Assembly (NCBI GenBank): GCA_031370645.1
Contig: JANMQV010000021.1
Coordinates: 1 to 24,567, forward strand
Length of the DNA: 24,567 bases
DNA from: Candidatus Eiseniibacteriota bacterium
GTDB lineage: Bacteria > Eisenbacteria > RBG-16-71-46 > SZUA-252
Direction: 5' to 3'
Positions within the stretch are counted from its first letter, which is position 1. Every line of letters begins with the position of its first letter. Below are positions 4,402 to 22,622 of this stretch, one piece after another. Position numbers and translations under genes: made by a program. The notes under the pieces were generated by a model. That model saw only the letters and a list, made by a program, of their open reading frames with translations. It was not told where the DNA came from and searched no databases.

Positions 4402-6827
4402 TTGAGTACCAGGAATGGGGTCGTGCCGCCGACGGTATCGCCGTCGGAGCGAAGGCGGGCCCAGTATCGGCCCGAAGGAACGCGGCGGCCGGCGCGATCG
4501 CGGCCGTCCCAATTGAGACGTAGCTCCGCGACGCCGGATTCAGGGGCGCCCCCAGCTGCCGCGGCGGCGGGTGTCCGCAAGGTCCGAACGACTCGTCCCT
4601 GCACGTCGAGAATATCGATCTGAGCGCTCACGCGAAGGAGTTTCACCGCACCGTAGCTCCCGGCGCCATGCGCCGTTGCCCGCGCGCGCAGAACTGCCTC
4701 CCCGCTCACGGGATTCGGGCAGACGTCGAGCCGCACACGTCCGAACGCCGGCGGCGCCTGATGCGGCTCCCGTTCCACGCCCGTCACCGTCATCGCCCCC
4801 GGGCGAAGCACCAGAATCCTCGAACTGTCGGAGACGAAAAGATCCGGGAGCGGGCCGGCCGTCGGTTCAAACGCGAGGGCCGTCGGTCCGCCTGCGGGAT
4901 TTTGGAAGTGCGCGCGCTCGAGCGGCAGGCCGCTGGGCCAATTGGAGCCACGGGCGAGCGTCACGGGGGCGGTGTAAGGCGCGGCCGCCGCCGGCGTCAC
5001 GAGATCGAGCGCGGCGCGGCCCGGCGCCTGAAATAGCGCGACACCGCCGCTCGACTGCGCCGCGGCGATCACGCCAGTCCAGGCCGTCGCCACACCGCAC
5101 GGGGAACCTGACGTCTGCTGCGCCAGGATGAGTCCCGACGTCCCCACCAGCGGAACGCGCGCGATCTGAAGGCCCCCACCTGCCGCGGCGATGGCCACGT
5201 ACGTGCTCTCACGCGAATGGGCGATCCAAGCGACATCGCGTGCATAGGGCGATCCCCACGCGGTCGAGAGAGGCACGCCCGCTCGAGGGGTGAACGCCGC
5301 TGTCGTCGGTACGCCGCCACCTAGAACCACATCCGCGACGGCGAGTCCCGCCGCACCATCCGCCACCGCGAGCGTCACCGAAGCGCCGCCTCCGCGCACT
5401 TCCACGTCGAGAGCGTTCCCTGGCGTGCTCCAGGTACCCGCCACGACCGGAAGGCCCGAGAGCGAATCGATCGCGGCGGAAATGTCGATCGCCACGATCC
5501 CTGCTCCGGTTCCGACGACCGTCGAAAACGGATCGAACGTACCGCCCACCGGAACCGAGCCGGTATCGGCATCGGCCACGAACGCCACGACGCGTCCCGA
5601 TGGCGCAACGGTCCATGCCACGTCGGTGGCGAAGCCCGGCAGCGGGATCGTCCGGAGAATGCGATCGTCCACGCCATTCTGATCGGAGTCGAAGAAATCC
5701 TCCCACGATCCGAAGATCGGATCCTCGATCACGCGAAGATCGAGCAGCATGAGACCGGCGCGCCCCGCGGCGAGAAGCCCGACGTCCAGTGTCTCGCCTC
5801 CCGCCGCGACGAACCCGGGTACGACCGAAAGCGCGGCGGCGAAGGAAGGAATCCGGAATGTTCCAACCAATCGATCGTCACCGCCGTCGCCGTCGGCATC
5901 GGTGAGACCGATCGAATCGGTCGAGGTCACACGGAAGACTTCGATGCCACCCAATCCCTCCGGCGCCAGCCAGGCGCCGCGGTTCGAAAGAAGCGCGGGG
6001 CCGTCGCGTCCCGTCGCGCCTTGGTCGAGCGGCGTGACGCCGATCGGCCGAAGCGCCATGGGAAGCGAATCGGGATTTGCGCTCTCTACGATCGCGAGCG
6101 CCGTCGCAGTCGAAATCCCGCCCGAGCTCGTGAGGCTGACCTGGTAGGCGTTGGAGTTCCCCGCCCAAGCATTTCCCGCAAGCGTTCCGGCAACGTTGAG
6201 CGGAACGGTGCCGCCACCCGGAACGAATAGAGTCGAGGGGACCGAACCACCCGGCGGGAAGAGGACGCCGATATTGTTCGGATCGGGATTCGACTTCCCC
6301 GCGGTGACGACGACGGTTTCGGACCCGCCGGTTCTGCTTCGAACCGAGAACGCTGCCACTCCCGATGTGCCTCCCGCGCCCGACCAGGTCGGAGTGAGGG
6401 GCCAGATTTCGGGGCGGCCGTCGGTGGCGGCAATGATCGAAGACGTTACCTTCGCCCCGAGGGTTCCACCGTTCGCATAGACGACCGATATCGAAACGCT
6501 GCCGAGGCCGAGCGAAGCGGGGGGGACGGCGACCAAGAGCGGGATGCGAGCGATCGTTCCCGCCTGGAGAACGAGCGCCCCAGACGAAGGCGTCACGGTG
6601 GAGAGAAATCCGCCGGAACTCGCGGCGGTCCACTGGACGGATGCGGACGCGCCCTCGGCGCGCAGCACTAGTTCCAGCGTCGCCGAGCTGCCGGGGGCGA
6701 TGGTCGCGCCGGGGAACCAAGCGGTGATCGGGCGCGGCGGGATCCACTCGCTGGCGTGGGCGCGAAGTGGCAACATCGACGCGGGCAACGCCGCCAGCAT
6801 TGCCGCGACGACGATCCACCGGCGCAA
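4398..6827 (-). CDS. Secreted protein: Ig-like N-terminal domains, LVIVD-like beta-propeller repeats, C-terminal FlgD-Ig/T9SS-CTD-like domain
   Basis: Signal peptide if started at TTG 6827 (MRRWIVVAAMLAALPASMLPLRAHA). Repeats AAGRAGLMLLDL, AGIVAIDIS, ADGAAGLAVADV, AAAGGGLQIARV. Tail PNPVSG...ILDVQGRVVRTL...WDGRDRAGRRVPSGRYWARL. The ORF-track start at 6893 would read through a terminator hairpin. Confidence 0.75.
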   Translation of the reverse strand: MRRWIVVAAMLAALPASMLPLRAHASEWIPPRPITAWFPGATIAPGSSATLELVLRAEGASASVQWTAASSGGFLSTVTPSSGALVLQAGTIARIPLLVAVPPASLGLGSVSISVVYANGGTLGAKVTSSIIAATDGRPEIWPLTPTWSGAGGTSGVAAFSVRSRTGGSETVVVTAGKSNPDPNNIGVLFPPGGSVPSTLFVPGGGTVPLNVAGTLAGNAWAGNSNAYQVSLTSSGGISTATALAIVESANPDSLPMALRPIGVTPLDQGATGRDGPALLSNRGAWLAPEGLGGIEVFRVTSTDSIGLTDADGDGGDDRLVGTFRIPSFAAALSVVPGFVAAGGETLDVGLLAAGRAGLMLLDLRVIEDPIFGSWEDFFDSDQNGVDDRILRTIPLPGFATDVAWTVAPSGRVVAFVADADTGSVPVGGTFDPFSTVVGTGAGIVAIDISAAIDSLSGLPVVAGTWSTPGNALDVEVRGGGASVTLAVADGAAGLAVADVVLGGGVPTTAAFTPRAGVPLSTAWGSPYARDVAWIAHSRESTYVAIAAAGGGLQIARVPLVGTSGLILAQQTSGSPCGVATAWTGVIAAAQSSGGVALFQAPGRAALDLVTPAAAAPYTAPVTLARGSNWPSGLPLERAHFQNPAGGPTALAFEPTAGPLPDLFVSDSSRILVLRPGAMTVTGVEREPHQAPPAFGRVRLDVCPNPVSGEAVLRARATAHGAGSYGAVKLLRVSAQIDILDVQGRVVRTLRTPAAAAAGGAPESGVAELRLNWDGRDRAGRRVPSGRYWARLRSDGDTVGGTTPFLVLK

Positions 6828-11434: not shown

Positions 11435-12312
11435 GGTGCGACCTCGAGGTGCGTCGTCGTGGTGTCTTGAATCGCGAGAACCTCCACGGGATTTTGTAAG
11501 GCTTCCGTCGTCAGGTAGCCCATGCCCAAGCCGCGTCCCGTTCCCGGCTCGAGCGCCGTGCTGGTGATGAATCCGGAGGGCGCGCCTCCCGCCCTGAGTT
11601 CGGTGCCCCGCGGCAGAATGCCTGCCTGCGCGGAGTAAAGAAAGCCGATTCGTCGGCGCCGGACCGCTCCGCGATGTGTCGTGCGCGCCACGACCTCCTG
11701 GCCCACGTAACATCCCTTGTCGAGTGAGATCGCTTCGGGGAGAGAAAGCTCGGTCGCGATGCGATCGGAATCGAAGTCGACCCCGGCCCGTGGAATTCCC
11801 GCGGAGATTCTCCACGCTTCGAGCCATTCGGGCGATGCCGCTGAGGCGAGTAGGCTCATCACTCCACCTGGCTTCTCCGCTCCCGGCGGAAGAAGCAGGA
11901 ACGTGACTTGGGCGGCATGGATCGCTTCCGCGCCGGGGAGTGCCGTCGCCCAGTTGCGCGCGACGGCACTTCGATCGCGTCCGGCGACTCCGTAGAGACG
12001 GGGCATCCCGTTTGGCCCTGTAATGGTGACGTCCTCCATGACCCTCAGGCGCTCTAGATGAGGGAGAAGCGCTTCCCGGCCACCCGGCTCCACGAAGAGC
12101 GTCACGCCCTCCCCTTCCCGATCCAGAACCACCCAGGCCAACGCCACCGGCCGGCCCTTCTCCGACAGGAAGAGGGTCGGTGATGCGACATCGGGGCGAA
12201 AGGTCGTTATGTCTTGTGTTCCAACGCCTTGCAGGAACTCACGGGCGTCCGGCCCGGTGAGCCGAACGAGGGCCCAGTCGTAGAAATCGAGGAGGAATGC
12301 GGGTCGATCCAT
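11422..12312 (-). CDS. ygfZ: YgfZ/GcvT-family folate-binding Fe-S repair protein
   Basis: GPDAREFLQG..TQD and signature KGCYVGQE. Start ATG 12312; the longer ORF-track extension overlaps the arsR promoter. Confidence 0.88.
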   Translation of the reverse strand: MDRPAFLLDFYDWALVRLTGPDAREFLQGVGTQDITTFRPDVASPTLFLSEKGRPVALAWVVLDREGEGVTLFVEPGGREALLPHLERLRVMEDVTITGPNGMPRLYGVAGRDRSAVARNWATALPGAEAIHAAQVTFLLLPPGAEKPGGVMSLLASAASPEWLEAWRISAGIPRAGVDFDSDRIATELSLPEAISLDKGCYVGQEVVARTTHRGAVRRRRIGFLYSAQAGILPRGTELRAGGAPSGFITSTALEPGTGRGLGMGYLTTEALQNPVEVLAIQDTTTTHLEVAPWPL

Positions 12313-12343
12313 GAGCCAGGACCATACCATTCGCGGATACCCC

Positions 12344-12372
12344 TTGACGCAGAGAGACTTAAATCGTATATT
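12344..12372 (+). promoter_or_regulatory. sigma70 promoter of arsR-arsM
   Basis: TTGACG (12344-12349), 17-nt spacer, TATATT (12367-12372); SD AAGGAGG before ATG 12399. Confidence 0.85.
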
Positions 12373-12379
12373 TACGATT
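12362..12379. promoter_or_regulatory. Probable ArsR operator (7-4-7 inverted repeat)
   Basis: AATCGTA-tatt-TACGATT perfect inverted repeat covering the -10 and start site of the arsR promoter. Confidence 0.75.
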
Positions 12380-12398
12380 AACGATGAAAGGAGGCGCG

Positions 12399-12749
12399 AT
12401 GGGTACCCAGAAGTCGATTTCAATCCCGCTCGGCCCGCTCGAGCGAGAACCGGACGGGAACGACGATGAGCTCGCACGGATGGCGAAAGCGCTCGGGCAT
12501 CCCGCGCGTGTCGCGATCGTGAGGCTTCTTCTCGAAGGCGGTGAGTGCGTCTGCGGCGGCATCGTCGATCGATTGCCGCTCGCGCAGGCGACCGTGTCGC
12601 AGCATTTGAAGGTGCTGAAGGAAGCAGGCTGGATCAGCGGTGAAGTGGACGGTCCGCGCGTTTGCTACTGCGCCCGTCCCGAAGCACTACGGCGGTTCAT
12701 TGAATTGGCTCGAGGGTTGGAGCCGGCTACGGAAAGGAGCAAGTCATGA
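12399..12749 (+). CDS. arsR: ArsR/SmtB-family metalloregulator
   Basis: [16 protein letters not shown] (Cys pair in the alpha3 region), [15 protein letters not shown]; upstream of arsM. Confidence 0.92.
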
Positions 12750-13537
12750 GCACGATCGACATTCGGGAAACGGTGCGCGAGCGGTACGGCAAGGTGGCGG
12801 AGACGACGGGCGGCGAGCCGCAGGGTTGTTGCGGGAGCGACTGCGGATGCGGCTCGACCGTGTCGCTCGAGGAACTCGGGTACAGCGCGGAACAGCGCGC
12901 CGGTGTCCCCGAGGGGGCGGACTTGGGGCTTGGCTGCGGCAATCCGCTCGGACACGCCGCGGTGAGGCCGGGGGAGACAGTGCTCGATCTCGGTTCGGGC
13001 GCCGGAATCGACGCCTTTATCGCGTCGCGCGAGGTCGGGCCGACCGGCCGCGTCCTTGGCGTCGACATGACCGCCTCGATGATCTCCCGCGCGCGTAGTA
13101 ACGCCGTCAAGGGGGGCTTCACCAACGTGGAATTCCGCCTCGGCGAGATCGAGAACCTTCCGGTCGCCGACGGCACCGTGGACGTCGTGATCTCCAACTG
13201 CGTCGTGAATCTCTCGCCCGACAAGCCGCGCGTTTTTCGCGAAACGCTTCGCGCGCTCCGGCCCGGTGGCCGGGCGGTGCTGAGCGATCTCGTGTTGGTC
13301 GCTCCCCTTCCCGAGGCGGTGCGCACGTCGGTTGAAGCCTACGTCGGCTGCGTGGCGGGCGCGTCGATGAAGGACGAGTACGTTTCGCTCATGCGGGAGG
13401 CCGGATTCGAGAAGGTCGAGGTGTTGGAGGAGAAGAAGTACGGCCCCTCGGCGTTCGGCCCCGATGAGAAGGCGGCGTCTCAGACACTCGAGGCCGTTCG
13501 TTCGGTGAAGGTCCGGGCGTACAAGCCCGCGGCGTAG
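12746..13537 (+). CDS. arsM: Arsenite S-adenosylmethionine methyltransferase
   Basis: N-terminal [21 protein letters not shown] motif [28 protein letters not shown] overlap with arsR. Confidence 0.93.
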
Positions 13538-13583
13538 GCGCCCGCCGCGAAAGAGTCACAGTCACAGCGCGGCGGCTGCGGCA

Positions 13584-14159
13584 CTACTCGGCGACGCGGG
13601 CGCGGCCGTCGCCGTCGAAGACGATGACCGAATGAACCGGAGCGAGCGCGTTGAGTTTGGCGCGTCCACCTAGGTAGTCGAGTTCCACGATAAACGCGAA
13701 GGCGATCGGCGTGCAGCCGGTCGCCTTCGTCAATTGATACGCTGCCTCCGCGGTGCCGCCGGTCGCGATGACGTCGTCCGCGATGAGGACCCGCGTCCCT
13801 GGCCGGAGGAGATCGGCGAGAGTTTCGAGCGCCGCGCGTCCGTACTCGAGATCGTATTCCTCCTTGAAGGTCTTCCCCGGTAATTTCCCCGATTTCCGCG
13901 CGAGAAGAATTCCACGGTTCCAATGCGCGCCCAGTGCCGCCGCGACCAGAAATCCGCGCGCCTCGATGCCGAGGATGAGATCGGGGGGTGCGGCGTCGAA
14001 CGGCTTCGCGAGCGCGCGCACGGTCCGAGCCCACGCGCCCGCATCCGCCCAGAGCGGCGTGAGGTCGCGAAAGAGAACGCCCTTCTTCGGCCAATCGTGA
14101 ACGGGGCGCACCCAGTCGGAGAGCGGCGCGTCGGAGCGAGCGGGCGGGGTCCACATCAT
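13584..14159 (-). CDS. apt: Adenine phosphoribosyltransferase
   Basis: DWPKKGVLFRDLTPL, GIEARGF, RKSGKLP, YDLEYG and PRPP motif IADDVIATGGT. Confidence 0.95.
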   Translation of the reverse strand: MMWTPPARSDAPLSDWVRPVHDWPKKGVLFRDLTPLWADAGAWARTVRALAKPFDAAPPDLILGIEARGFLVAAALGAHWNRGILLARKSGKLPGKTFKEEYDLEYGRAALETLADLLRPGTRVLIADDVIATGGTAEAAYQLTKATGCTPIAFAFIVELDYLGGRAKLNALAPVHSVIVFDGDGRARVAE

Positions 14160-14166
14160 GGCCGCG

Positions 14167-14196
14167 AGGCTACCTGCCGGAGCGCCGCGGGCGCAA
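14167..14196 (-). promoter_or_regulatory. Putative leaderless promoter of apt
   Basis: TTGCGC, 18-nt spacer, TAGCCT, 7 nt, ATG; no SD upstream. Confidence 0.5.
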
Positions 14197-14236
14197 TTCC
14201 TCTCTGGGGGTAGAGGGCATCGAGTAGACTCGGAGC

Positions 14237-15181
14237 ATGCGGATCTTGATCGGCGGCGCGAGCGGAATGATCGGCGGCGCGCTGATGCGTCGCCTCACCG
14301 AAGGCGGGCATGAAGTGGTGAGGCTCGTTCGCGACCGTGGTACTACCGGTGGTGGCGGCGACGGCGGAGCGCCACGCGCCAGCACGAACGCGGGGACCAT
14401 TCCCTGGGATCCCGATCGCGGCATCCTCGAACCATCCGGACTTCGCGGCATCGACGTGGTGATGCACCTCGGCGGCGTCAGCATCGCTTCGGGCCGCTGG
14501 ACCACCGAACGAAAGCAGTTGATCCTCGAGAGTCGCGTCCGCTCCACACTCCTTCTCGCGGAACGAATCGCCGCCGCCCCTGCTTCCAATCGACCACGCG
14601 CATTCGTGCTCGCCTCGGCCACCGGCTATTACGGAAACCGCGGCGACGAAGCGCTTCCTGAGACGAGCGGGCCAGGCGAAGGATTTCTAGCCGACGTCTG
14701 CCGCGCGTGGGAAGCCGCGGCCGCTCCCGCCTCGCGTGCGGGTACGCGCGTCGCCCACGCGCGGACCGGCATGGTGTTGAGCCGAGAGGGGGGCGCGCTC
14801 GACGCGATGCTCCTCCCCTTTCGGCTCGGACTCGGCGGTCCGCTCGGTAGCGGCCGGCAGTGGTGGCCGTGGATCTCGATCGACGATGCGGCCGCGGTCT
14901 TCGCGCGCCTGGCCGAAGACGATTCGCTGTCGGGGCCGGTAAACGCGGTGGCGCCCGAACCGGTCACCTGCGCCGCCTTCGCGCGAGCGCTCGGGAGGGC
15001 CCTCCATCGCCCGGCCATTCTTCCTGCTCCTGCCTTCGCGCTCCGACTCCTGCTCGGCGAGATGGCCGACGCGCTCCTCCTCGCCAGCACGAAGGTCATC
15101 CCCGAGCGGCTCACGCGCGCCGGATTCGCATTCCAGCACGCGCGACTCGACGACGCGCTCCACGCGGCGCTCTTGCGCTAG
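14237..15181 (+). CDS. TIGR01777-family NAD-dependent epimerase/oxidoreductase (YfcH-like)
   Basis: GGASGMIG, RWT...I.ESRV, SATGYYG, FLADVCRAWE, LGGPLGSGRQWWPWI, GPVNAVAP, LGEMA. Confidence 0.93.
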   Translation: MRILIGGASGMIGGALMRRLTEGGHEVVRLVRDRGTTGGGGDGGAPRASTNAGTIPWDPDRGILEPSGLRGIDVVMHLGGVSIASGRWTTERKQLILESRVRSTLLLAERIAAAPASNRPRAFVLASATGYYGNRGDEALPETSGPGEGFLADVCRAWEAAAAPASRAGTRVAHARTGMVLSREGGALDAMLLPFRLGLGGPLGSGRQWWPWISIDDAAAVFARLAEDDSLSGPVNAVAPEPVTCAAFARALGRALHRPAILPAPAFALRLLLGEMADALLLASTKVIPERLTRAGFAFQHARLDDALHAALLR

Positions 15182-15190
15182 AATCGGAAC

Positions 15191-16534
15191 ATGGCCGGAA
15201 AACGATTGGTGATCCTGGGAGGCGGATTCGCCGGGCTCGACGTGGCCCGGGCGATCGGCCGTTCGCGCGTGGCGCGCGAATACTGGGACACCCTCCTCAT
15301 CGACAAGGAAAACTTCTTCCAGTTCAATCCGCTCCTCCCCGCCGTGGCGGTCGGCGCGGTTGAAACGCGGCACATCGTCTATCCGCTCCGACAGATGGCG
15401 AAGCACCGCCACATCCGCTTCCACAAGAACAAGGCGATCCGCATCGACCTCTCCCGCCGCGAGGTCGTGCTCCACAACAATCTCGTGCAACCGTTCGACG
15501 TCCTCGTGGTCGCGGTCGGGAGCGTCACGAACTACTACGGTGTTCCGGGGGCCGAGGCGTACGCGCGCCCCTTCAAGACGGTGATCGACGCCATGACGCT
15601 CCGCGCCCGCGTGGTGGAACTGTTCGAGATGGCGGAGCAGGCGGAATCGGTGGCGCAGCGGAGGCGGCTCCTCTCCTTCGCCATCGTCGGCGGCGGCGTG
15701 ACGGGCGTGGAAGTGGCGGCGGAGTTGATCGAGATGGCTCGCGACACCCTGCTGCCGCGCTACCCGAATCTTTCGCCGCGGGAGCTGACGATCACGATCG
15801 TCGAAGGGGGCGACCGGCTCGTGCCGAGCGCGAAGCCGGAACACTCCGAGTACGTTCACCGCTTCCTCGAGCGGCGGGGCGTTCGCATTCTCCTTGGCTC
15901 GCCGGTGAAGTGCGTGGAGCCGAAGCGGCTCTTCCTCCCCGACGGAAGTGAGGTGGATGCCTTCACGCTACTTTGGACCGCGGGGATTCGCCCTCCCGAC
16001 CTCGTGCGCGATCTTCCCCTTTCGTTTCACAAGGACGGCCGCGTGCTCGTGGACGAGGAGCTTCGCGCGCGACGCGCGGACGGCACGGTGCTCGTGGACG
16101 TCTATGTTCTCGGCGACTGCGCCGCCTCCCTTCGGCCCGACGGGACCTTTCAACCGGCGCTGTCGCAAACCTCGATCGCCATGGGCGGCCACATCGGCGA
16201 GACATTGACCCGCCGCGCTCACGGAAAGCCGCCGCTTCCCTTTAGGTTCAAGGACGCGGGCTACATCATCTCGCTCGGAAAACACTCGAGCGTCGTCTCG
16301 CTCTTCGGGATCTCGTTCTCGGGCAAACTCGCGTGGCTCCTCTGGGCGGGCGCCTACCTCGTCAAGATGGTCGGCCTCCGGAAGCAGATCGAGGTCGGCA
16401 TCGACCATCTGACGCATTTCTTCTTCGACCATGACATGTCGCAAATCCTGAACCGCCGCGCGGTTCTGTCGGACGAGGAACTCAATTTGTCGCTCGCCGC
16501 CGAGCCGGTTGCGCCCCCCTCCCGGGAGGCGTAG
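15191..16534 (+). CDS. ndh: Type II NADH:quinone oxidoreductase-like flavoprotein (NDH-2)
   Basis: Two Rossmann motifs (LGGGFAG, VGGGVTGVE), FNPLL..VA.G, WTAG, YVLGDCA and a C-terminal amphipathic region AWLLW...YL. Confidence 0.85.
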   Translation: MAGKRLVILGGGFAGLDVARAIGRSRVAREYWDTLLIDKENFFQFNPLLPAVAVGAVETRHIVYPLRQMAKHRHIRFHKNKAIRIDLSRREVVLHNNLVQPFDVLVVAVGSVTNYYGVPGAEAYARPFKTVIDAMTLRARVVELFEMAEQAESVAQRRRLLSFAIVGGGVTGVEVAAELIEMARDTLLPRYPNLSPRELTITIVEGGDRLVPSAKPEHSEYVHRFLERRGVRILLGSPVKCVEPKRLFLPDGSEVDAFTLLWTAGIRPPDLVRDLPLSFHKDGRVLVDEELRARRADGTVLVDVYVLGDCAASLRPDGTFQPALSQTSIAMGGHIGETLTRRAHGKPPLPFRFKDAGYIISLGKHSSVVSLFGISFSGKLAWLLWAGAYLVKMVGLRKQIEVGIDHLTHFFFDHDMSQILNRRAVLSDEELNLSLAAEPVAPPSREA

Positions 16535-16604
16535 GCTGGTGGCGGGAGGAAATCCAGCACGCCGGCCGCGGAGCGGTCGGCGCCCCTACAAAGGAGGAAG
16601 CACG

Positions 16605-17000
16605 ATGAAGCGTTTGTTCACGGTCGTACTCGCCCTGGCGTTAGTGGCGCTCTTCGCTTTCTCGGGCGCATTCGCGGCCGAAGGAAAGAAGGAAGCCAAG
16701 CCCCAGAGCTGGACCGGAGAGGTTGTCGATCTCGGCTGCTACATGGGGAAGGGCGCGAAGGGCGAAGGGCACAAGGAGTGCGGGATGAAGTGCGTCTCGA
16801 ACGGCATGCCGATGGGCCTATTGGTCGGTGGGAACAGGGTGTTCGTTCTCACGATGAATCATGACAACGGCGATCCCTTCACTGCGTGCAAGGGCATGGT
16901 TGGGCAGCAGGTGAAGATCGGCGGCACGATGTCCGCCAAGGGTGGGGTGCAAGCGATCCAAGTGACGAGCGCCGAAGCGGCGGCGTCACCGGCGAAGTAG
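16605..17000 (+). CDS. Secreted small Cys/His/Met-rich protein, paralogue 1
   Basis: Strong SD AAGGAGG; signal peptide ending AFA; GEVVDLGCY...HKECGMKCV..GMPMG...NH..DPF. Confidence 0.85.
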   Translation: MKRLFTVVLALALVALFAFSGAFAAEGKKEAKPQSWTGEVVDLGCYMGKGAKGEGHKECGMKCVSNGMPMGLLVGGNRVFVLTMNHDNGDPFTACKGMVGQQVKIGGTMSAKGGVQAIQVTSAEAAASPAK

Positions 17001-17008
17001 ATTCGATT

Positions 17009-17046
17009 CGCGCGCGGGAACTCGAACGGTCCCGCGCGCGTTTTTT
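17009..17046 (+). terminator. Intrinsic terminator-like hairpin after paralogue 1
   Basis: CGCGCGCGGGA-N10-TCCCGCGCGCG (11-bp stem) followed by TTTTTT. Confidence 0.8.
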
Positions 17047-17050
17047 GGTG

Positions 17051-17821
17051 ATGATCCGACGCTTTATCCCCCTCCTCATCGTCTCCGCGGTCATCCTGGC
17101 ATTCTTTGCCGGGGCCGACGCGTTTCGTCCTCGGCTTACGCCCGTCGAGCGAGGACGCCGTGTGGCGGAAGCGAACGGCTGCTTCTCCTGCCACGGTCCG
17201 GAAGGGACGAAGGGAATTCCGAATCCCGGCCGCGCTGATCTCACGGTTCCCGCCTTCCCCGGCGCTCTGATGATGTACGCGAAGAACGCGGAGCAAGTAC
17301 GCGAGTGGATCCGGGACGGCGGCACCAAGGCTCGGAAGGCGAGCAAGACGTGGCGCGAGGATCGCCAGAAGGGGACGCTCCGAATGCCCGCGTTCGGGAA
17401 GCGGCTCACGGGGCGCGAAATCGACGACCTCGTCACGTTCGTCCTCGCCGCCGCCGGCGAACCCGCCCCCGAAGATTCCCTTCCCGCCGCCGGACTCGAA
17501 CGCGCTTCCACGCTCGGCTGTTTCGGATGTCACGGCATCGGCGGCCGCTTCGCGCGACCGAATCCCGGATCGTTCAAGTCGTACGTGCCGCCCTGGGACG
17601 GCCCCGATTTCGCCGAATTGGTGGCCAGCCGGGGCGAGTTCGAGGAGTGGGTGGAGGACGGCGTGAGCCGCCGGTTCGACGCGAACCCGGTCGCACGGTT
17701 CTTCCTCAAGAGAGCACCGCTCCGCATGCCCGAATACGAGAAGCACTTGGAGCCCGGAGACTTGAACGCGTTGTGGGCCTATGTGACATGGCTCCGAACG
17801 CCCATTCCGCCTACGCCGTAA
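17051..17821 (+). CDS. Dihaem class I cytochrome c, exported or membrane-anchored
   Basis: N-terminal hydrophobic signal; CFSCH and CFGCH, each followed by LRMP (distal Met). Start ATG 17051 (or GTG 17048). Confidence 0.88.
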   Translation: MIRRFIPLLIVSAVILAFFAGADAFRPRLTPVERGRRVAEANGCFSCHGPEGTKGIPNPGRADLTVPAFPGALMMYAKNAEQVREWIRDGGTKARKASKTWREDRQKGTLRMPAFGKRLTGREIDDLVTFVLAAAGEPAPEDSLPAAGLERASTLGCFGCHGIGGRFARPNPGSFKSYVPPWDGPDFAELVASRGEFEEWVEDGVSRRFDANPVARFFLKRAPLRMPEYEKHLEPGDLNALWAYVTWLRTPIPPTP

Positions 17822-17864
17822 GGACCAGGGATTTGCGGCCGCGGCCCGCGGTAACATCCAGGGC

Positions 17865-18320
17865 ATGAAACGACTCCTCTTTCTCTTGGTCGCGGCCGTG
17901 CTGCTGATGCCCGCCGGCGACGATCCCGCCGCTCAAACCGGCGGAGTGCCCGCCCCCAAAGGACCCAAGAAGACGATCAAGGTCGTCGGAGAGCTGCTCG
18001 ACATGGGCTGCTTCATCTCGCGCGGCCTTCGCGGAGAACTGCACCGCGAATGCGCCACCAAGTGCGTCAATGCCGGCGTGCCGATGGGCGTGATGACCGC
18101 CGACAGCACCGTCTACGTCCTCACGCAGAATCACGATCGCGCCATGGATCCGAAGAGTTTCGCCGGAGCGCCCGATCCCTACCAACAGATGAAGAACTGC
18201 GCTTCGTTCCGAGTCGAGGTGGTGGGGCTCAATTGGGAGCGAAACGGCGTGAAGTTCCTGGAATTGAAGTTCGCCAAGCAACTGCCCGCCGCCGGCGCCG
18301 CGCCGAAGCCGGGCTCGTAA
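17865..18320 (+). CDS. Secreted small Cys/His protein, paralogue 2
   Basis: Signal peptide; GELLDMGCF...HRECATKCV..GVPMG...NH...DPY. Confidence 0.85.
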   Translation: MKRLLFLLVAAVLLMPAGDDPAAQTGGVPAPKGPKKTIKVVGELLDMGCFISRGLRGELHRECATKCVNAGVPMGVMTADSTVYVLTQNHDRAMDPKSFAGAPDPYQQMKNCASFRVEVVGLNWERNGVKFLELKFAKQLPAAGAAPKPGS

Positions 18321-18339
18321 CCCACCGAGGAACGACATC

Positions 18340-18894
18340 ATGCGCCGCACCGCCGAATCAGCCGCTCGTACCAACTCCTCGCCATGGATCCGCCGCGCTT
18401 CGTTCACGGCCACCGTCGTGATCGCGCTGGCCGCGGGAGCCGCGATTGGATCGAGCACGTCCCCGCCGCCCCCTCCGAAGAACGTGGCGCCCGCCAAGGC
18501 TGCACCCGCCAAAGGCGCGTCTTCGAAGAACGCGGCCGGACTTCAGGTCTCGAATCGGCATCTGGTCACGGTTCGGGGCGAGGTGGTCGACTACTACTGC
18601 TTCATCGAGAAGGGGCTTCGCGGACCGGGGCATCTCGAGTGCGCGGTAAAATGCGTTTCGGGCGATATCTGCATGGGGATGTTCACGCAGCAGGGCGAAC
18701 TCTACATGATATCGGTGAATCACCTTCGCGCCATGGATCCACTCGCGTTCAAGGGGATTCCCGATCCGTTCAACCGCGCCCGCGGGCTACTCTGTCAGAC
18801 AGTTGATCTGACCGGCTACGCGATGGAGCGTCATGGTCAGAAAGTCCTCGAGATCATGGACGTCAAGCCGGTGGGGCCGGGAACGCGAGGATAA
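18340..18894 (+). CDS. Secreted small Cys/His protein, paralogue 3
   Basis: SD GAGG; long signal region and Pro/Ala/Lys linker; GEVVDYYCF...HLECAVKCV..DICMG...NH...DPF. Confidence 0.82.
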   Translation: MRRTAESAARTNSSPWIRRASFTATVVIALAAGAAIGSSTSPPPPPKNVAPAKAAPAKGASSKNAAGLQVSNRHLVTVRGEVVDYYCFIEKGLRGPGHLECAVKCVSGDICMGMFTQQGELYMISVNHLRAMDPLAFKGIPDPFNRARGLLCQTVDLTGYAMERHGQKVLEIMDVKPVGPGTRG

Positions 18895-19642
18895 GAATCT
18901 CGTCGAGATAGAAACTCAAGCGGCCCTCGTGCTCTTCCGGCGCGAGGGCCGTTTTCGCGCCCGGCGGCGCGTCGCGAAACATGGCGCGAAGCCGCTCCTT
19001 CGTGGGTGCATCCACCCCCTGCATTCCCGCCCAGAACTCGAATTCGCGCCGCTTTCTGAAGTGCTCCACGCGCTCCACGCGAAGGCCCGCGCCGCGGAAG
19101 AAGGAGACCCACTCCGCCTCGTTGATCGCGCGCTGATGGCTGGGGTCGCGGGTTTTTTCGAGGGCATTGAAATAGGCGGCCGACGAGGCGTCGTCGGGAG
19201 CGAGGTTGTCGATCACGATCACGCGTCCGCCCGGCTTCACGACCCGCGCGCACTCGCGGACAAAACGGCCGACGTCGGCGAAGTGGTGCGGCGCCACGCG
19301 GCACGTGACGAGATCGAACGAGGCGGCCGCGAAGGGAAGATCGCAGGCGTCGGCCTCGCGGAAGGTGACGTTCGAGACGCCCTTCCCCCGAATGAAGCGC
19401 TCGGCGGCGCCGAGCATCTCCCGCGTGAGGTCGGAGGCCACGACGTCCCGCACGTGAGGCGCGAGGGCGAGGGCCGTGTGGCCCCCGCCCGTCGCGATAT
19501 CAAGAGCGCTCCAGTCAGATTGCGGTTCGGCGAGCGCCAAGAGCCGGTCAAGGCTTTCGCTCGTCTGGTGGTCGCGGCTCGTCACGTACTGCTCGGCGTG
19601 CGCGCCGAACTGACGCCGCGAGAGCTCGCGCGCGTCTTCCAC
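18863..19642 (-). CDS. Class I SAM-dependent methyltransferase (Methyltransf_11 type)
   Basis: QFGAHAEQY..S..H, LDIATGGGH, DACDLPF..ASFDLVTCRVAPHHF, RVVKPGG, RDPSH. Start GTG 19642, 4 nt after the upstream stop. Confidence 0.9.
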   Translation of the reverse strand: MEDARELSRRQFGAHAEQYVTSRDHQTSESLDRLLALAEPQSDWSALDIATGGGHTALALAPHVRDVVASDLTREMLGAAERFIRGKGVSNVTFREADACDLPFAAASFDLVTCRVAPHHFADVGRFVRECARVVKPGGRVIVIDNLAPDDASSAAYFNALEKTRDPSHQRAINEAEWVSFFRGAGLRVERVEHFRKRREFEFWAGMQGVDAPTKERLRAMFRDAPPGAKTALAPEEHEGRLSFYLDEILILAFPAPPA

Positions 19643-19646
19643 GAAC

Positions 19647-20258
19647 CTAGGCCGCCTTGGCGCGGCCCATCCGCTTGGCCGCCCCACGACGCGTCCGCCT
19701 CTTCGCGGCGCGCGGTGCCCGCTTCTTCGTGGCGGCGCGGCGCGTCCGCTTCTTTGCGGTCGCGCGGCGCGCGCGCTTCTTGGCGGCCGGCTTCGTGGCG
19801 CGCTTCTTCCGCTTCCCGCGCGCCGGTGCGGCGACTCCCGCCAGGGCGCGGAGTTCGCGAGCACCCTTCTTCCGAAGATCCTGCCACGCGAGTACCGTCT
19901 GGCGGCGCGGCTTCGTGCGGCCCGCTTCCCAGAGATAGATCGAGAGGCTCGACACGCCGAGAAGGTGCGAGTAGGCCTTCCGGCTCATGCCGAGCGAGTC
20001 GCGGTGCTTCCGCATGAGTGCCGCGGAGAATCGGGCGCGGCGTCCGTCCGCGCCCTTGCCCGCGGCCACCGGACGTCCCACCCGGCCCTTCATACCCGCC
20101 GTGACCGTGGCCACACCGGTCAGAAGCCGCCGCTCCAAGAGCGTGATCGATTTCCGGATCGCCTGCAGTTCCGTCCTAAGCGAGTCCACCACTTGCTTCG
20201 ATTCCCCACGTGCCGCGTGGCGCATTTCGTCGCGGAGCGCCTTTGTTAGATTCGACAT
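19647..20258 (-). CDS. Xre-type HTH DNA-binding protein with N-terminal coiled coil and histone-H1-like K/R/A tail
   Basis: MSNLTKALRDEMRHAAR coiled-coil start; RFSA..MRKHRDSLGMSRKAYSHLLGVSSLSIYLWEAGRTKP HTH; ~55-aa basic tail. Confidence 0.85.
   Translation of the reverse strand: MSNLTKALRDEMRHAARGESKQVVDSLRTELQAIRKSITLLERRLLTGVATVTAGMKGRVGRPVAAGKGADGRRARFSAALMRKHRDSLGMSRKAYSHLLGVSSLSIYLWEAGRTKPRRQTVLAWQDLRKKGARELRALAGVAAPARGKRKKRATKPAAKKRARRATAKKRTRRAATKKRAPRAAKRRTRRGAAKRMGRAKAA
19650..19820 (-). repeat. Coding tandem repeat (about 5 degenerate 8-9 aa units)
   Basis: AAKKRARRA / TAKKRTRRA / ATKKRAPRA / AKRRTRRGA / AKRMGRAKAA. Confidence 0.75.
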
Positions 20259-20276
20259 ATCGTTCGTCCTACTTTC

Positions 20277-22622
20277 TCAGCCGGAGCTGGTTCCATGCTC
20301 GGGGGGCGGTTCCGGATGGAACCGTCCTCCCGCGAGCGCCATCCATTGGAGTCGTGCGCACGGACCGCCGGGAGTTCCTTGGTGGTGCCGACGCTGCAGC
20401 CGTTCCACGATCGCCGACACGCCGACGGCATCGGCGTGACGGAGGAGTCCGCCGCGAAACGGCGGGAACCCGGTACCCAACACCATCGCCAGATCGACGT
20501 CGCCCGCGGAGAACGCGACTCGTTCCTCGAGCGCCATCGTCGCCTCGTTGATCATGGCGTCCACCAACCGCTCCACGATCTCTTCCGCCGGAGGGCCCGC
20601 GGCCGCTTCGGCGCCCTTCTTCGACGTGGGTGCGGCGAGCGCGGGATTCACGCCGGCGCGTTTCCCGTTCTCGTACCGGTAGAAACCACGTCCCGACTTC
20701 TTTCCGAGCGTTCCCTCGGATACCAATTTGTCGAGCAGCCCAGTGCGCGGCATCCGCTCGCCGAACGCCTCTTCCAACACGTGCGCGACCTTCCGCGCCA
20801 CGTCGAGCCCGATCTCGTCGAGGAGTTCGCAGGGCCCGAGCGGCATTCCAAACCCTCGGAGCGCGCGATCGATCGATTCGACGGGCGTTCCCCGTTCCAC
20901 GAGCGAGACGGCTTCCCCGAGATACGGCATCAAGATCCGATTCACGAGAAAGCCCGGTTCGTCGCCCACCACGATCGGGGTCTTCCCCATCCGCCGCGCC
21001 AGCGCCACGACCGTTTCGACCGCGGCTTCGTCGGAGCCCTCGTGGCAAATCACCTCGACCAGCGGCATTCGCGTGACCGGGTTGAAGAAGTGCATCCCCA
21101 CGACGCGCTGCGGGCGGATGCAATTCTTCGCGATGGCGCGAACGGAGAGCGACGAGGTGTTCGTGGCCAGCACGCAGGTTTCCGGGACGAGCGCCTCGAG
21201 TTCGCGGAAGATTCCCTGCTTGATCGCGAGGTCCTCCACCACCGCCTCGATGACGATGTCCGCGCGTCCCAACCCGTCGAGCGCGAGGGTCGGTTCGATG
21301 CGCGCCATTGCTTGTTCCAGTTCCGCCTTCGTCAGCCGGCCGCGGGAGGCTTCCTTATCGAAGAGTTTCTTCGCGTGCGTGAGCGAATGCAAGATCGGCT
21401 CCGGCTTGATGTCGCGGAGCCGGACGTGAATGTCCCGCGAGGAGAGGAGATAGGCGATCTCGCCACCCATGGTGCCCGCACCGAGCACCGAGGCGCGGGA
21501 AACGGAACGCGCGTGGAGTGCGGGTGGTTCGCGCTTGGCGGCTTCCCGAAGGAGGAAGATGCGGCGAAGGTGGATCGAGGCCGCGGTGAAAAGCAGTTTC
21601 GCGACCGCCTTCCGCTCGGTCTTCAGTCCCTGCGCGATCGGTTTTCCCAACGTGCTCTCCAGCACCCGAAGAATTTCAAGCGGCGCGGGATAGTGGCCCC
21701 CGCTTTGCGCCATGACCTTCTTTCTGGCCTGCTCGAGGACGTAGGAGCGGAATGGCGGCAGCGATTGTAGGAGTTTCTGGGCGAACGAGACGCGCACGAC
21801 GCGCGGCTTCTTGCCGGCCAAGAAGGCTTCCACCCAAACCGCGGCGCGCTCATTGAATCGCTCGCGCGGGATGATGTCGTCAATCACGCCCACGCGCCGC
21901 GCACGCTTCGAGTCGAGCGCGCGACCGCTGAGGAGGAGATCGAGCGAGGCGATGAGGCCGATTCGTTTCGGAAGCCGCTGCGTTCCGCCGAAGCCGGGCA
22001 GGATTCCGAGCATCACCTCGGGGAGCGCAATGCTGAAAGAGCGGGAATCGGAGGCCAGGCGGAAGTCGAAGGCGAGCGTGAGTTCCGTGCCGCCCCCCAT
22101 GCAAGGCCCGTTGATCGCGGCGATGAGGGGATAGGGGAGTTCCCGAATCTCCTGGAAGAGAAGTTGGGCATCCTTCGCTTTCGCCTCCGCCTCCTGCGGC
22201 GATTCGAGTTTCTGAAATTCGTTCACGTCGGCGCCGGCGATGAACTGATTCTCCTTGCCGCTCACGAGGAGGAGCGCGCGCGGCGCTACCCCTCCCTTCG
22301 CCTTCAGCGCGGCCACGGTGGCGCGGAGCGCGTCGAGCGATTTCGAGTCGAGGAGATTCACGCGGCGATCCGAATCGTCGAATGAGAGGACGTAGACACC
22401 GGACGGACGCGCGTCGAGGCGGAATGGGCCATAGACCCCGGCGCCGATCGACAGCGGCTCCGCGTTTGCCGTACGTGATGGCCGTGGCGCCGGTCTCGGT
22501 GGGCTATCCCGTGGCGGCAATTCGAGATCCGCCACCGGTGGAATCGCGGTGGACGGCAGGCCGCCGGCTGCTGGTTCGCCGGGAGCACCCGCCGGGAAGA
22601 GATCCCGCTGTTCGGAACTCAC
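20277..22622 (-). CDS. fadJ: Fatty-acid oxidation complex alpha subunit (enoyl-CoA hydratase / 3-hydroxyacyl-CoA dehydrogenase)
   Basis: FIAGADV, GGGTE and LPEV (both hydratase Glu), GHYPAP, GAGTMG, TNTSSL, GMHFFNP, PGFLVNR, GFPPFRGG. GTG overlaps the thiolase TGA. Confidence 0.93.
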   Translation of the reverse strand: MSSEQRDLFPAGAPGEPAAGGLPSTAIPPVADLELPPRDSPPRPAPRPSRTANAEPLSIGAGVYGPFRLDARPSGVYVLSFDDSDRRVNLLDSKSLDALRATVAALKAKGGVAPRALLLVSGKENQFIAGADVNEFQKLESPQEAEAKAKDAQLLFQEIRELPYPLIAAINGPCMGGGTELTLAFDFRLASDSRSFSIALPEVMLGILPGFGGTQRLPKRIGLIASLDLLLSGRALDSKRARRVGVIDDIIPRERFNERAAVWVEAFLAGKKPRVVRVSFAQKLLQSLPPFRSYVLEQARKKVMAQSGGHYPAPLEILRVLESTLGKPIAQGLKTERKAVAKLLFTAASIHLRRIFLLREAAKREPPALHARSVSRASVLGAGTMGGEIAYLLSSRDIHVRLRDIKPEPILHSLTHAKKLFDKEASRGRLTKAELEQAMARIEPTLALDGLGRADIVIEAVVEDLAIKQGIFRELEALVPETCVLATNTSSLSVRAIAKNCIRPQRVVGMHFFNPVTRMPLVEVICHEGSDEAAVETVVALARRMGKTPIVVGDEPGFLVNRILMPYLGEAVSLVERGTPVESIDRALRGFGMPLGPCELLDEIGLDVARKVAHVLEEAFGERMPRTGLLDKLVSEGTLGKKSGRGFYRYENGKRAGVNPALAAPTSKKGAEAAAGPPAEEIVERLVDAMINEATMALEERVAFSAGDVDLAMVLGTGFPPFRGGLLRHADAVGVSAIVERLQRRHHQGTPGGPCARLQWMALAGGRFHPEPPPEHGTSSG

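Follow-up and report, generated by a model that had tools for sequence, protein, structure and literature searches.

What does the five-gene cluster at positions 15191 to 18894 of contig JANMQV010000021.1 encode, and which of its genes belong together? The stretch of DNA analysed here (24,567 nucleotides (nt), hereafter the window) comes from a Candidatus Eiseniibacteriota genome (G000), and the cluster brings together genes for an NDH-2-like flavoprotein, three small paralogous proteins with conserved cysteines and a histidine (the Cys3His family) and a dihaem c-type cytochrome. A first-pass annotation had proposed the five genes as a candidate envelope module for electron transfer or for metal reduction and trafficking. 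The comparative analysis points to a smaller conserved unit and, with a rough probability of 0.5, to a periplasmic copper-binding family that has a dedicated cytochrome c as its redox partner. The features that carry this argument are as follows.

15191..16534, + strand: NDH-2-like flavoprotein, 447 amino acids (aa); Pyr_redox_2 match (E 1.5e-40) and two GxGxxG motifs
16605..17000, + strand: paralogue 1, 131 aa, unnamed Cys3His family, predicted exported OB (oligonucleotide/oligosaccharide-binding) fold; from alignment, AlphaFold2 (AF2) model and tree
16737..16793, + strand: paralogue 1 motif C45-x10-H56-x2-C59-x3-C63, proposed metal site on a helical insert; translation CYMGKGAKGEGHKECGMKC
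17009..17046, + strand: GC-rich stem-loop followed by U6, terminator- or attenuator-like; from folding energy and compensatory changes in relatives
17051..17821, + strand: dihaem class I c-type cytochrome, 256 aa, with an N-terminal signal or anchor; Pfam Cytochrom_C and Cytochrome_CBB3
17865..18320, + strand: paralogue 2, 151 aa, motif C49/H60/C63/C67 at 18009-18065; from alignment and tree
18340..18894, + strand: paralogue 3, 184 aa, motif C87/H98/C101/C105 at 18598-18654; from alignment and tree

The five open reading frames (ORFs) are co-oriented on the + strand and closely spaced, as first described, with spacers of 70, 50, 43 and 19 nt in the order ndh, paralogue 1, cytochrome, paralogue 2, paralogue 3. 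The starts of paralogue 1 (16605) and of the cytochrome (17051) were shifted to internal ATG codons that yield N-terminal hydrophobic segments. On inspection of the sequences, each of the four proteins encoded after ndh begins with a basic stretch followed by a hydrophobic one, in agreement with the export signals assigned to them earlier. The twin-arginine motif is absent from paralogues 1 and 2, and the paralogues look to be Sec-exported. At its 3' end, paralogue 3 overlaps a convergent gene for an S-adenosylmethionine (SAM) methyltransferase (18863-19864, - strand) by 32 nt.

The three Cys/His proteins are indeed paralogous. Identity to paralogue 1 is 37% for paralogue 2 and 31% for paralogue 3 (mutual range 31-37%), and the alignment of the three contains 25 invariant columns, among them C45, H56, C59 and C63. 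A profile built from them recovers each one in the genome at E-values of 2e-56 to 2e-74, and a 15-member profile reaches 2384 clusters (at 50% identity) at E<=0.001 and 698 at E<=1e-10. Over those 15 diverse members, G38, E39, D42, C45, G50, H56, C59, C63 and G114 are invariant, and 147 of the 150 best family representatives fit the pattern C-x(8-14)-H-x2-C-x3-C. The paralogues match no entry in Pfam or NCBIfam (the 15 members give nothing against Pfam even at E<=10), and a PDB sequence profile search with them returned one chance match (E 0.77), in line with the earlier impression that no recognised system is present. Close homologues are labelled only as 'hypothetical protein', several of them in metagenome-assembled genomes of Candidatus Eisenbacteria. 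No description of the family was found in the available portions of the literature on DUF5818, periplasmic OB-fold copper proteins and Eisenbacteria cytochromes, where an unnamed family is hard to find. Membership of DUF5818 (PF19135) itself was considered and rejected, as the window paralogues do not match it; 4 of 41 distant members score 17.7-23.6 bits against a cut-off of 27, over the C-terminal strands only, and the domain is carried by 13% of one Atlas cluster.

The AF2 model of paralogue 1 (predicted local distance difference score 83.9, predicted TM-score 0.71) is a five-stranded barrel, with a low-confidence helix (residues 5-19) ahead of it and two helices inserted after strand 1 that are predicted to bear all four invariant ligand-type residues. 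C45 is on a short helix, and H56, C59 and C63 are on the helix that follows (residues 54-65). Foldseek relates this model to the OB folds of RPA and LysRS at E about 2e-3, with nothing in its pdb database at E<=0.001, and VIA structural matches have Z scores of 7.0 (RPA), 5.6 (YgiW) and 5.5 (SilF-Cu(I), 8bwv_B). Matches of a predicted model to this fold class are evidence of a common fold, not of function. One protein, P0070, consists of the family domain fused to a C-terminal HMBD, and a search for longer fused family proteins found only three tandem proteins with two family domains. Met/His-rich linkers, a minor piece of evidence, occur in 5 of 26 paralogue 1 orthologues.

The cytochrome has two CXXCH motifs (CFSCH, 17180-17194, and CFGCH, 17519-17533), and it scores 54.9 bits against a cut-off of 21.3 for Cytochrom_C and 43.2 against 27 for Cytochrome_CBB3. 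Among 27 orthologues, mean column identity is 58% and 49 columns are invariant; these include both haem motifs (C44, C47, H48, C157, C160 and H161) and the methionines of the MPAF and MPxY motifs (M112 and M226). The N-terminal segment could be a cleaved signal (AGA/DAF) or a membrane anchor. With its two class I haem c domains, CXXCH motifs, conserved methionines and possible N-terminal anchor, the protein resembles CcoP and cytochrome c4. However, this similarity is weak (PDB sequence matches to CcoP and c4, best E 1e-5 over 77 residues), no ccoNOQ genes lie alongside, and the orthologues make up a separate group linked to the Cys3His family. Identification as the cbb3 subunit CcoP was rejected, given a TIGR00782 score of 43 bits against a cut-off of 179.95 and the absence of cco genes from the window. 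Co-folding of the cytochrome (residues 28-256, with two haems) and paralogue 1 (residues 30-131) gave scores of 0.04 and 0.03, to which no weight is given either way.

Which of these genes travel together was examined in 40 related genomes plus G000. Each of the 24 genomes from the same taxonomic family encodes the paralogue family, most often as multiple copies. The cytochrome is encoded at 26 loci among the relatives (27 rows, one gene being split), and 24 of these have a family member no more than a few hundred bases away, the two others being G013:C73 and G008:C7. A wider census drew 59 loci from a one-genome-per-species collection with the motif GE[IVL][LV]D[MLY]GC[FY], and is skewed to paralogue-1-like members. 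A homologous dihaem cytochrome adjoins the family member at 42 of these loci, including contigs labelled Zixibacteria, Ignavibacteriales, GN15 and Krumholzibacteriia, and in 38 clean pairs with the paralogue first the spacer is 9 to 223 nt. The paralogue precedes the cytochrome in Eisenbacteria-type loci and follows it in Acidobacteriota.

A quick IQ-TREE run places paralogue 1 in a clade of 18 rows (Shimodaira-Hasegawa-like support, SH-aLRT, 96), paralogue 2 in one of 14 rows (SH-aLRT 99) and paralogue 3 in one of 15 rows (SH-aLRT 100). The latter two clades are sisters (support 88), nested among cytochrome-adjacent members, and their rows are nearly all from Eisenbacteria; one row in each comes from L078, labelled Acidobacteriota, which we take to be a misbinned Eisenbacteria contig. 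The pair of paralogues 2 and 3 is found alone at L085 and L086. By distribution and tree, then, the window combines three separable units: ndh, paralogue 1 with the cytochrome, and paralogues 2 and 3. On these sequences the conserved cross-phylum core is a paralogue 1-type protein plus the cytochrome, and paralogues 2 and 3 are Eisenbacteria-only subfamilies. The reading of all five genes as one conserved module is thus not supported, with ndh linkage confined to one family. In the course of the census, three loci labelled Hyphomicrobiales, Limnocylindrales and Acidobacteriota (L041, L046 and L078) were found to carry the Eisenbacteria-type block, with NDH-2 proteins 77-83% identical to that of the window; all three are probably misbinned Eisenbacteria contigs.

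Copper enters through the neighbourhoods of the relatives. For efflux pumps of the resistance-nodulation-division (RND) type the cut-off was TIGR00914 (CusA/CzcA), which does not split Cu/Ag pumps from Zn/Co/Cd pumps, and for copper P1B ATPases it was TIGR01511. Immediately upstream of the family member, 8 of the 59 census loci encode an RND pump. At 6 of the 59 it is CusA-like, and the pumps of L063, L090, L093 and L076 pass the cut-off; that of L062 is multidrug-like and misses it, and L075 resembles L062 (28% identity to the CusA-like query). Copper-type P1B ATPases occur at four loci. In the Eisenbacteria loci L063 and L066 the order is membrane fusion protein (MFP), RND pump, paralogue, cytochrome and CopA, and L066 continues with a cupredoxin. 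At L092 a NosL-like gene separates the pump from the family member, and L093 encodes a CusB-like MFP with an HMBD.

The same arrangement recurs in Acidobacteriota, where the family is present at E<=1e-10 in 59 of 201 genomes, the unpublished G069 included. From 71 listed places, 40 were taken by E-value rank and blind to context, passing over genome G069 and places that lay within 6 kb of a contig start. Within 6 kb of the family member, 10 of these loci have a CusA/CzcA-like RND pump, 6 a CopA-like ATPase and 10 a homologous dihaem cytochrome. The order is RND, CopA, cytochrome, paralogue in L095-L098 and L100, and MFP, RND, cytochrome, paralogue in L102; in L101 a second, unrelated dihaem cytochrome precedes CopA. 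All six RND pumps and all three ATPases tested from this sample pass the curated cut-offs; overall, TIGR00914 is reached by 9 of 10 RND pumps tested (the miss being L062) and TIGR01511 by five full-length ATPases, and that of L090, cut by the end of the locus, scores 363.6 against 397. Other neighbours include YHS/TRASH proteins (L102, L111 and L119), an OEP gene with a multicopper oxidase (L127) and a two-component system (L105). Because five genomes of the sample hold 1 to 4 above-cut-off CusA-family pumps per 2.9-6.4 Mb, the chance of finding one in a random 12-kb window is estimated at about 1/100, against the 10 in 40 observed, and in G098 and G149 the only such pump is the one beside the family member. 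Members from copper operons are scattered on the family tree (4-6 label changes), and the copper link is therefore family-wide.

From gene order, the place that CusF would take in CusA/CzcA-CopA operons is filled by family members in Acidobacteriota, Eisenbacteria, Verrucomicrobiota and Elusimicrobiota, and the same cytochrome is often encoded there too. Next to homologues, c-type cytochromes and metal-handling genes are strongly over-represented, the opposite of the lack of enrichment that the first-pass annotation had named as speaking against its proposal. Of its suggestion of metal reduction or trafficking, trafficking fits this comparative context, which points to copper, although the window itself contains no copper pump.

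The ligands of CusF are His, Met, Met and Trp, inside the barrel. By analogy, the nearest functional counterpart of the Cys3His proteins is CusF/SilF, whose fold class, compartment and operon position they share but whose ligands differ. Like CusF and SilF, the Cys3His proteins are small, predicted to be exported and modelled as a five-stranded OB-type barrel, and relatives of the window's proteins, though not the window's own, are encoded in CusCBA-type operons beside an RND pump and an MFP. The SilF-Cu(I) structure superposes on the paralogue 1 model with a root-mean-square deviation of 2.9 over 70 residues, a generic fold match. In contrast to CusF, the Cys3His site is predicted on two helices inserted between strands 1 and 2, neither a Met pair nor a Trp is conserved, and the family has a conserved cytochrome c partner, which CusF lacks. 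The CusF_Ec profile matches neither the 15 diverse members (E<=10) nor the three window paralogues. The OB-fold class and periplasmic copper role of CusF are as given in the available part of PMC7558416.

Copper chaperones of the Sco/SenC type, which are membrane-anchored and have a thioredoxin fold, bind through a CxxxC motif and a distal His. The Cys3His family offers by analogy a similar CxxxC pair and a His as candidate copper ligands. Identity with a Sco-type chaperone was rejected on the predicted OB barrel, which is not a thioredoxin fold, and on the fourth invariant residue, a Cys. A further comparison is with CopI and CopJ of Rubrivivax gelatinosus, small copper-induced periplasmic proteins encoded beside copA and involved in copper tolerance, including under anaerobiosis (PMC4600104, in part). 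The descriptions in that part of the source, of CopI as a cupredoxin and of CopJ as having a CxxC motif, set the Cys3His family apart, and include no dedicated dihaem cytochrome.

The most likely reading is that the Cys3His site, carried by the helical insert, holds a soft metal, probably Cu(I), and that these proteins serve as periplasmic metal carriers in the manner of CusF, passing copper to, or receiving it from, CopA and CusB/CusA. The dihaem cytochrome could exchange electrons either with the cysteine site or with the bound copper, interconverting Cu(II) and Cu(I); it might reduce Cu(II) to exportable Cu(I) on the carrier, or oxidise Cu(I). It would in this way tie periplasmic copper handling to the respiratory chain, either drawing on the chain or feeding it. 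We infer metal binding, the metal and electron transfer from motif and neighbourhood, and the direction of electron flow cannot be told from sequence. In the window genome the pair of paralogue 1 and cytochrome is located away from the copper pumps, accompanied by two lineage-specific extra paralogues, and NDH-2 could feed the quinone pool. A more specific and rather doubtful version would make the pair a periplasmic copper redox system coupled to the respiratory chain: an oxygen-independent counterpart of multicopper oxidase, or a cupric reductase that supplies Cu(I) to CusCBA, working alongside CopA and CusA-type pumps in a number of little-studied phyla, with the Eisenbacteria form expanded to three carriers and wired to NDH-2 as electron source.

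Periplasmic copper handling is known mainly from a few proteobacterial proteins, such as CusF, CopC, PCuAC and CueO. What would be new here is an unnamed periplasmic copper carrier family, lacking a profile or a solved structure, with a cytochrome of its own. If the pair does perform copper redox chemistry, it would explain how Cu(I) and Cu(II) are controlled outside the cytoplasm where no multicopper oxidase is usable, including under anoxic conditions. The immediate gain is an annotation for thousands of 'hypothetical' exported proteins, and the paralogue and its cytochrome are a directly testable pair of small soluble proteins.

Several observations weigh against the assignment of the family to copper. 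The OB-fold match is generic (Z below 8, with nucleic-acid binders ranking first), paralogue 1 of the window lacks a Met/His-rich linker, no metal pump is annotated among the genes of the 24,567-nt window, and the RND cut-off, as noted, is blind to the metal. In the first census, 49 of 59 loci have neither an RND pump nor an ATPase. Of the 40 Acidobacteriota loci, 29 lack an RND pump (L127 alone adds a multicopper oxidase), and 26 have neither a pump nor the homologous cytochrome. A scan of the two immediate neighbours at those 26 loci (49 of 104 listed ORFs) found a mixture: c7-type cytochromes (L099 and L104), a PQQ (pyrroloquinoline quinone) dehydrogenase with a cytochrome c domain (L108), thioredoxin-reductase-like proteins (L117, L125 and L129), AhpC/TSA proteins (L131 and L132) and many unrelated genes. 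The window genome encodes no family member in its CopA-CusA cluster on contig C43, and a fourth paralogue lies 3-7 kb from, and not adjacent to, a cation diffusion facilitator (CDF) transporter and a CzcCBA-like pump. A fifth, truncated paralogue is at a contig end (L136, G000:C94:66000-75313), and the methyltransferase genes near some members, ArsM among them, leave room for a metalloid.

Downstream of the fifth paralogue, on the same strand, are cstA, a gene for a 694-aa multihaem cytochrome c and one for a cytochrome b561-like membrane protein. This neighbourhood (4167-9301 of L136) may be a quinol-linked module, of which the contig break hides the upstream side.

The alternative that survives best, unlikely as we consider it, is that the paralogues are respiratory carriers, in which Fe or Cu on the Cys3His site shuttles electrons along a route from NDH-2 through quinone, a bc complex or alternative complex III (ACIII), and the cytochrome to the paralogue. 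The tight cross-phylum pairing with a CcoP/c4-like cytochrome would follow from such a role, as would the other cytochromes beside members (those of L099, L104 and L108 and the second dihaem protein of L101), the haem proteins near the fifth paralogue and the ndh gene upstream in most close relatives. To account for the copper operons, their members would have to be back-ups under copper stress, or to need copper themselves. However, no oxidase, bc or ACIII genes stand beside the pair in the annotated loci, where the recurring partners are metal exporters and copper-binding domains instead of respiratory complexes, and Sec-type export, if the N-termini are read correctly, means that the centre must load in the periplasm.

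Quite improbable is a role in thiol protection or maturation, in which the Cys3His proteins are redox or zinc-switch chaperones that shield cytochrome c assembly from copper, the adjacent cytochrome being a client. Copper does target periplasmic c-type cytochrome assembly, according to the part of PMC4600104 available, and the neighbours of several members are of a suitable kind (the thioredoxin-reductase-like and AhpC/TSA proteins above, and a thioredoxin-like protein, at L062, L131, L132, L117, L125 and L129). Members are also encoded in RND operons without a cytochrome (L105, L111, L119, L092 and L093), though, and the paralogue 1 model and its fold matches show neither the CXXC thioredoxin motif nor the thioredoxin fold.

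It is very unlikely that the metal is a soft metal or metalloid other than copper, such as Ag(I), Zn/Cd, Hg(II) or As(III). A three-thiolate site would, by general coordination chemistry, suit As(III), Hg or Cd. ArsM, an arsenite methyltransferase, is encoded two genes and 1.7 kb upstream of the cluster (12746-13537, + strand; NF008823, 337 bits against a cut-off of 263), the SAM methyltransferase gene that converges on paralogue 3 is a second one, methyltransferases adjoin members in L072, L090 and L133, the CDF and CzcCBA-like genes lie near the fourth paralogue, and an ArsR-type regulator is near the pair in L042, L043, L052 and L058. Against this, the ATPases are of the P1B-1 copper type and above the cut-off, the remaining neighbours are copper-specific (multicopper oxidase, cupredoxin, NosL-like protein and CusB-like MFP), and no ars, mer or aio genes are seen beside members in the annotated loci. 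Finally, that the genes are neighbours by descent only, the family having some unrelated periplasmic role, is highly improbable: the whole 12-gene block (including apt, epimerase, ndh, par, cyt, par, par, methyltransferase, FadB-like and thiolase genes) keeps its gene order within the family, which makes synteny weak evidence at that level, but adjacency of paralogue and cytochrome persists across phyla despite inverted order and changing flanks.

The place of NDH-2 in the cluster has to be judged against that same block. The protein is a clear flavoprotein, with GGGFAG at residue 10 and GGGVTG at residue 167; its match to the NDH2_C membrane-association domain is weak (E 1.1e-4, 22.8 bits against a cut-off of 27.7). 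No other match in the genome reaches E<=1e-30, as would be normal for a housekeeping enzyme. Among the 24 genomes of the same family (f1), 20 encode an orthologue (70-92% identity) immediately ahead of a family member, and ndh is upstream at 14 of the 59 species loci, with a contig-end fragment at 15. The apt, epimerase, methyltransferase, FadB-like and thiolase flanks are found in the same order in the same genomes. Because these housekeeping flanks are equally syntenic, the adjacency of ndh is no stronger than that of clearly unrelated genes. The gene immediately before it is one of these flanks.

14237..15181, + strand: SDR (short-chain dehydrogenase/reductase)/epimerase-family gene; Pfam DUF1731 (8e-20) and Epimerase (7e-15)

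This gene ends 9 nt before ndh, keeps its place ahead of NDH-2 in the synteny block at family level (cluster 5) and is possibly the first gene of the transcription unit. In L038 (JBBTHR010000006.1, a 73-kb contig), ndh is cleanly absent (5797-6001) with the other genes of the block intact, and about 200 nt separate the end of the epimerase gene from paralogue 1. In the sister-family genomes G032 and G039 the ndh orthologue and the pair are on different contigs, and no ndh orthologue was found in G031. Four family members come after ndh in G013, G022 and L059, where the cytochrome is located elsewhere. NDH-2 was therefore rejected as an obligate part of the cluster: the linkage is a one-family synteny block, absent in L038 and undone in G032 and G039. 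The suspicion that the ndh link might be incidental turns out to be the better-supported half of the original reading; the link is confined to one Eisenbacteria family and is probably only inherited gene order, and a functional connection with the cluster is doubtful. The one outside pointer to such a connection is E. coli NDH-2, which PMC7558416 (Table 2, seen in part) includes among bacterial cupric reductases as unspecific and quinol-dependent. The window resembles that case in that ndh lies directly upstream of copper-linked genes, although this linkage is found in one family and lost in some species. In three loci from low-GC Acidobacteriota genomes (L117, L125 and L129), a thioredoxin-reductase-like flavoprotein of about 310 aa (Pyr_redox_2) adjoins the family member, a second and independent case of a pyridine-nucleotide flavoprotein beside the Cys3His family.

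The 50-nt spacer between paralogue 1 and the cytochrome contains a hairpin with an 11-bp GC-rich stem (17009-17019 with 17030-17040) and a 10-nt loop. Directly after it comes U6 (17041-17046), leaving 4 nt up to the start of the cytochrome gene. Its minimum free energy is -25.3 kcal/mol (z -2.49). Over seven relatives at genus to family level, 98.7% of cells are paired and 4 of the 11 pairs have compensatory changes, against pairing of 22-76% in slid controls; this covariation evidence is modest because the sequences are close kin. The hairpin looks like an intrinsic terminator, an attenuator or an element that stabilises the mRNA, and may set differing expression for ndh and paralogue 1 on one side and for the cytochrome and paralogues 2 and 3 on the other. 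It matches no Rfam family (a search of 12000-20500 gave one sub-threshold chance match), and the terminator scan missed it because of the 10-nt loop. That scan was at chance level between genes (6 terminator-like sites against 4.9 expected), and a promoter scan between genes found no promoters. Public sequencing runs that carry the locus comprise eight DNA runs from two studies, and no RNA run was found.

Two proteins that have no Pfam match were also noted. Homologous proteins of about 460-490 aa are encoded downstream of family members at L061 (6499-7872) and L087 (6470-7933), in the former (Eisenbacteria) before a CopA-type ATPase and in the latter (Elusimicrobiota) after an OEP gene. The remaining genes of the window are housekeeping genes, among them those for NAD synthase, a desaturase, a FadB-like protein and a thiolase, together with one for a secreted metalloprotease. 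The second unmatched protein, encoded at 19647-20258 on the - strand, is 203 aa long with a C-terminal tail very rich in Lys, Arg and Ala, and it is kept in the family-level synteny block (cluster 9).

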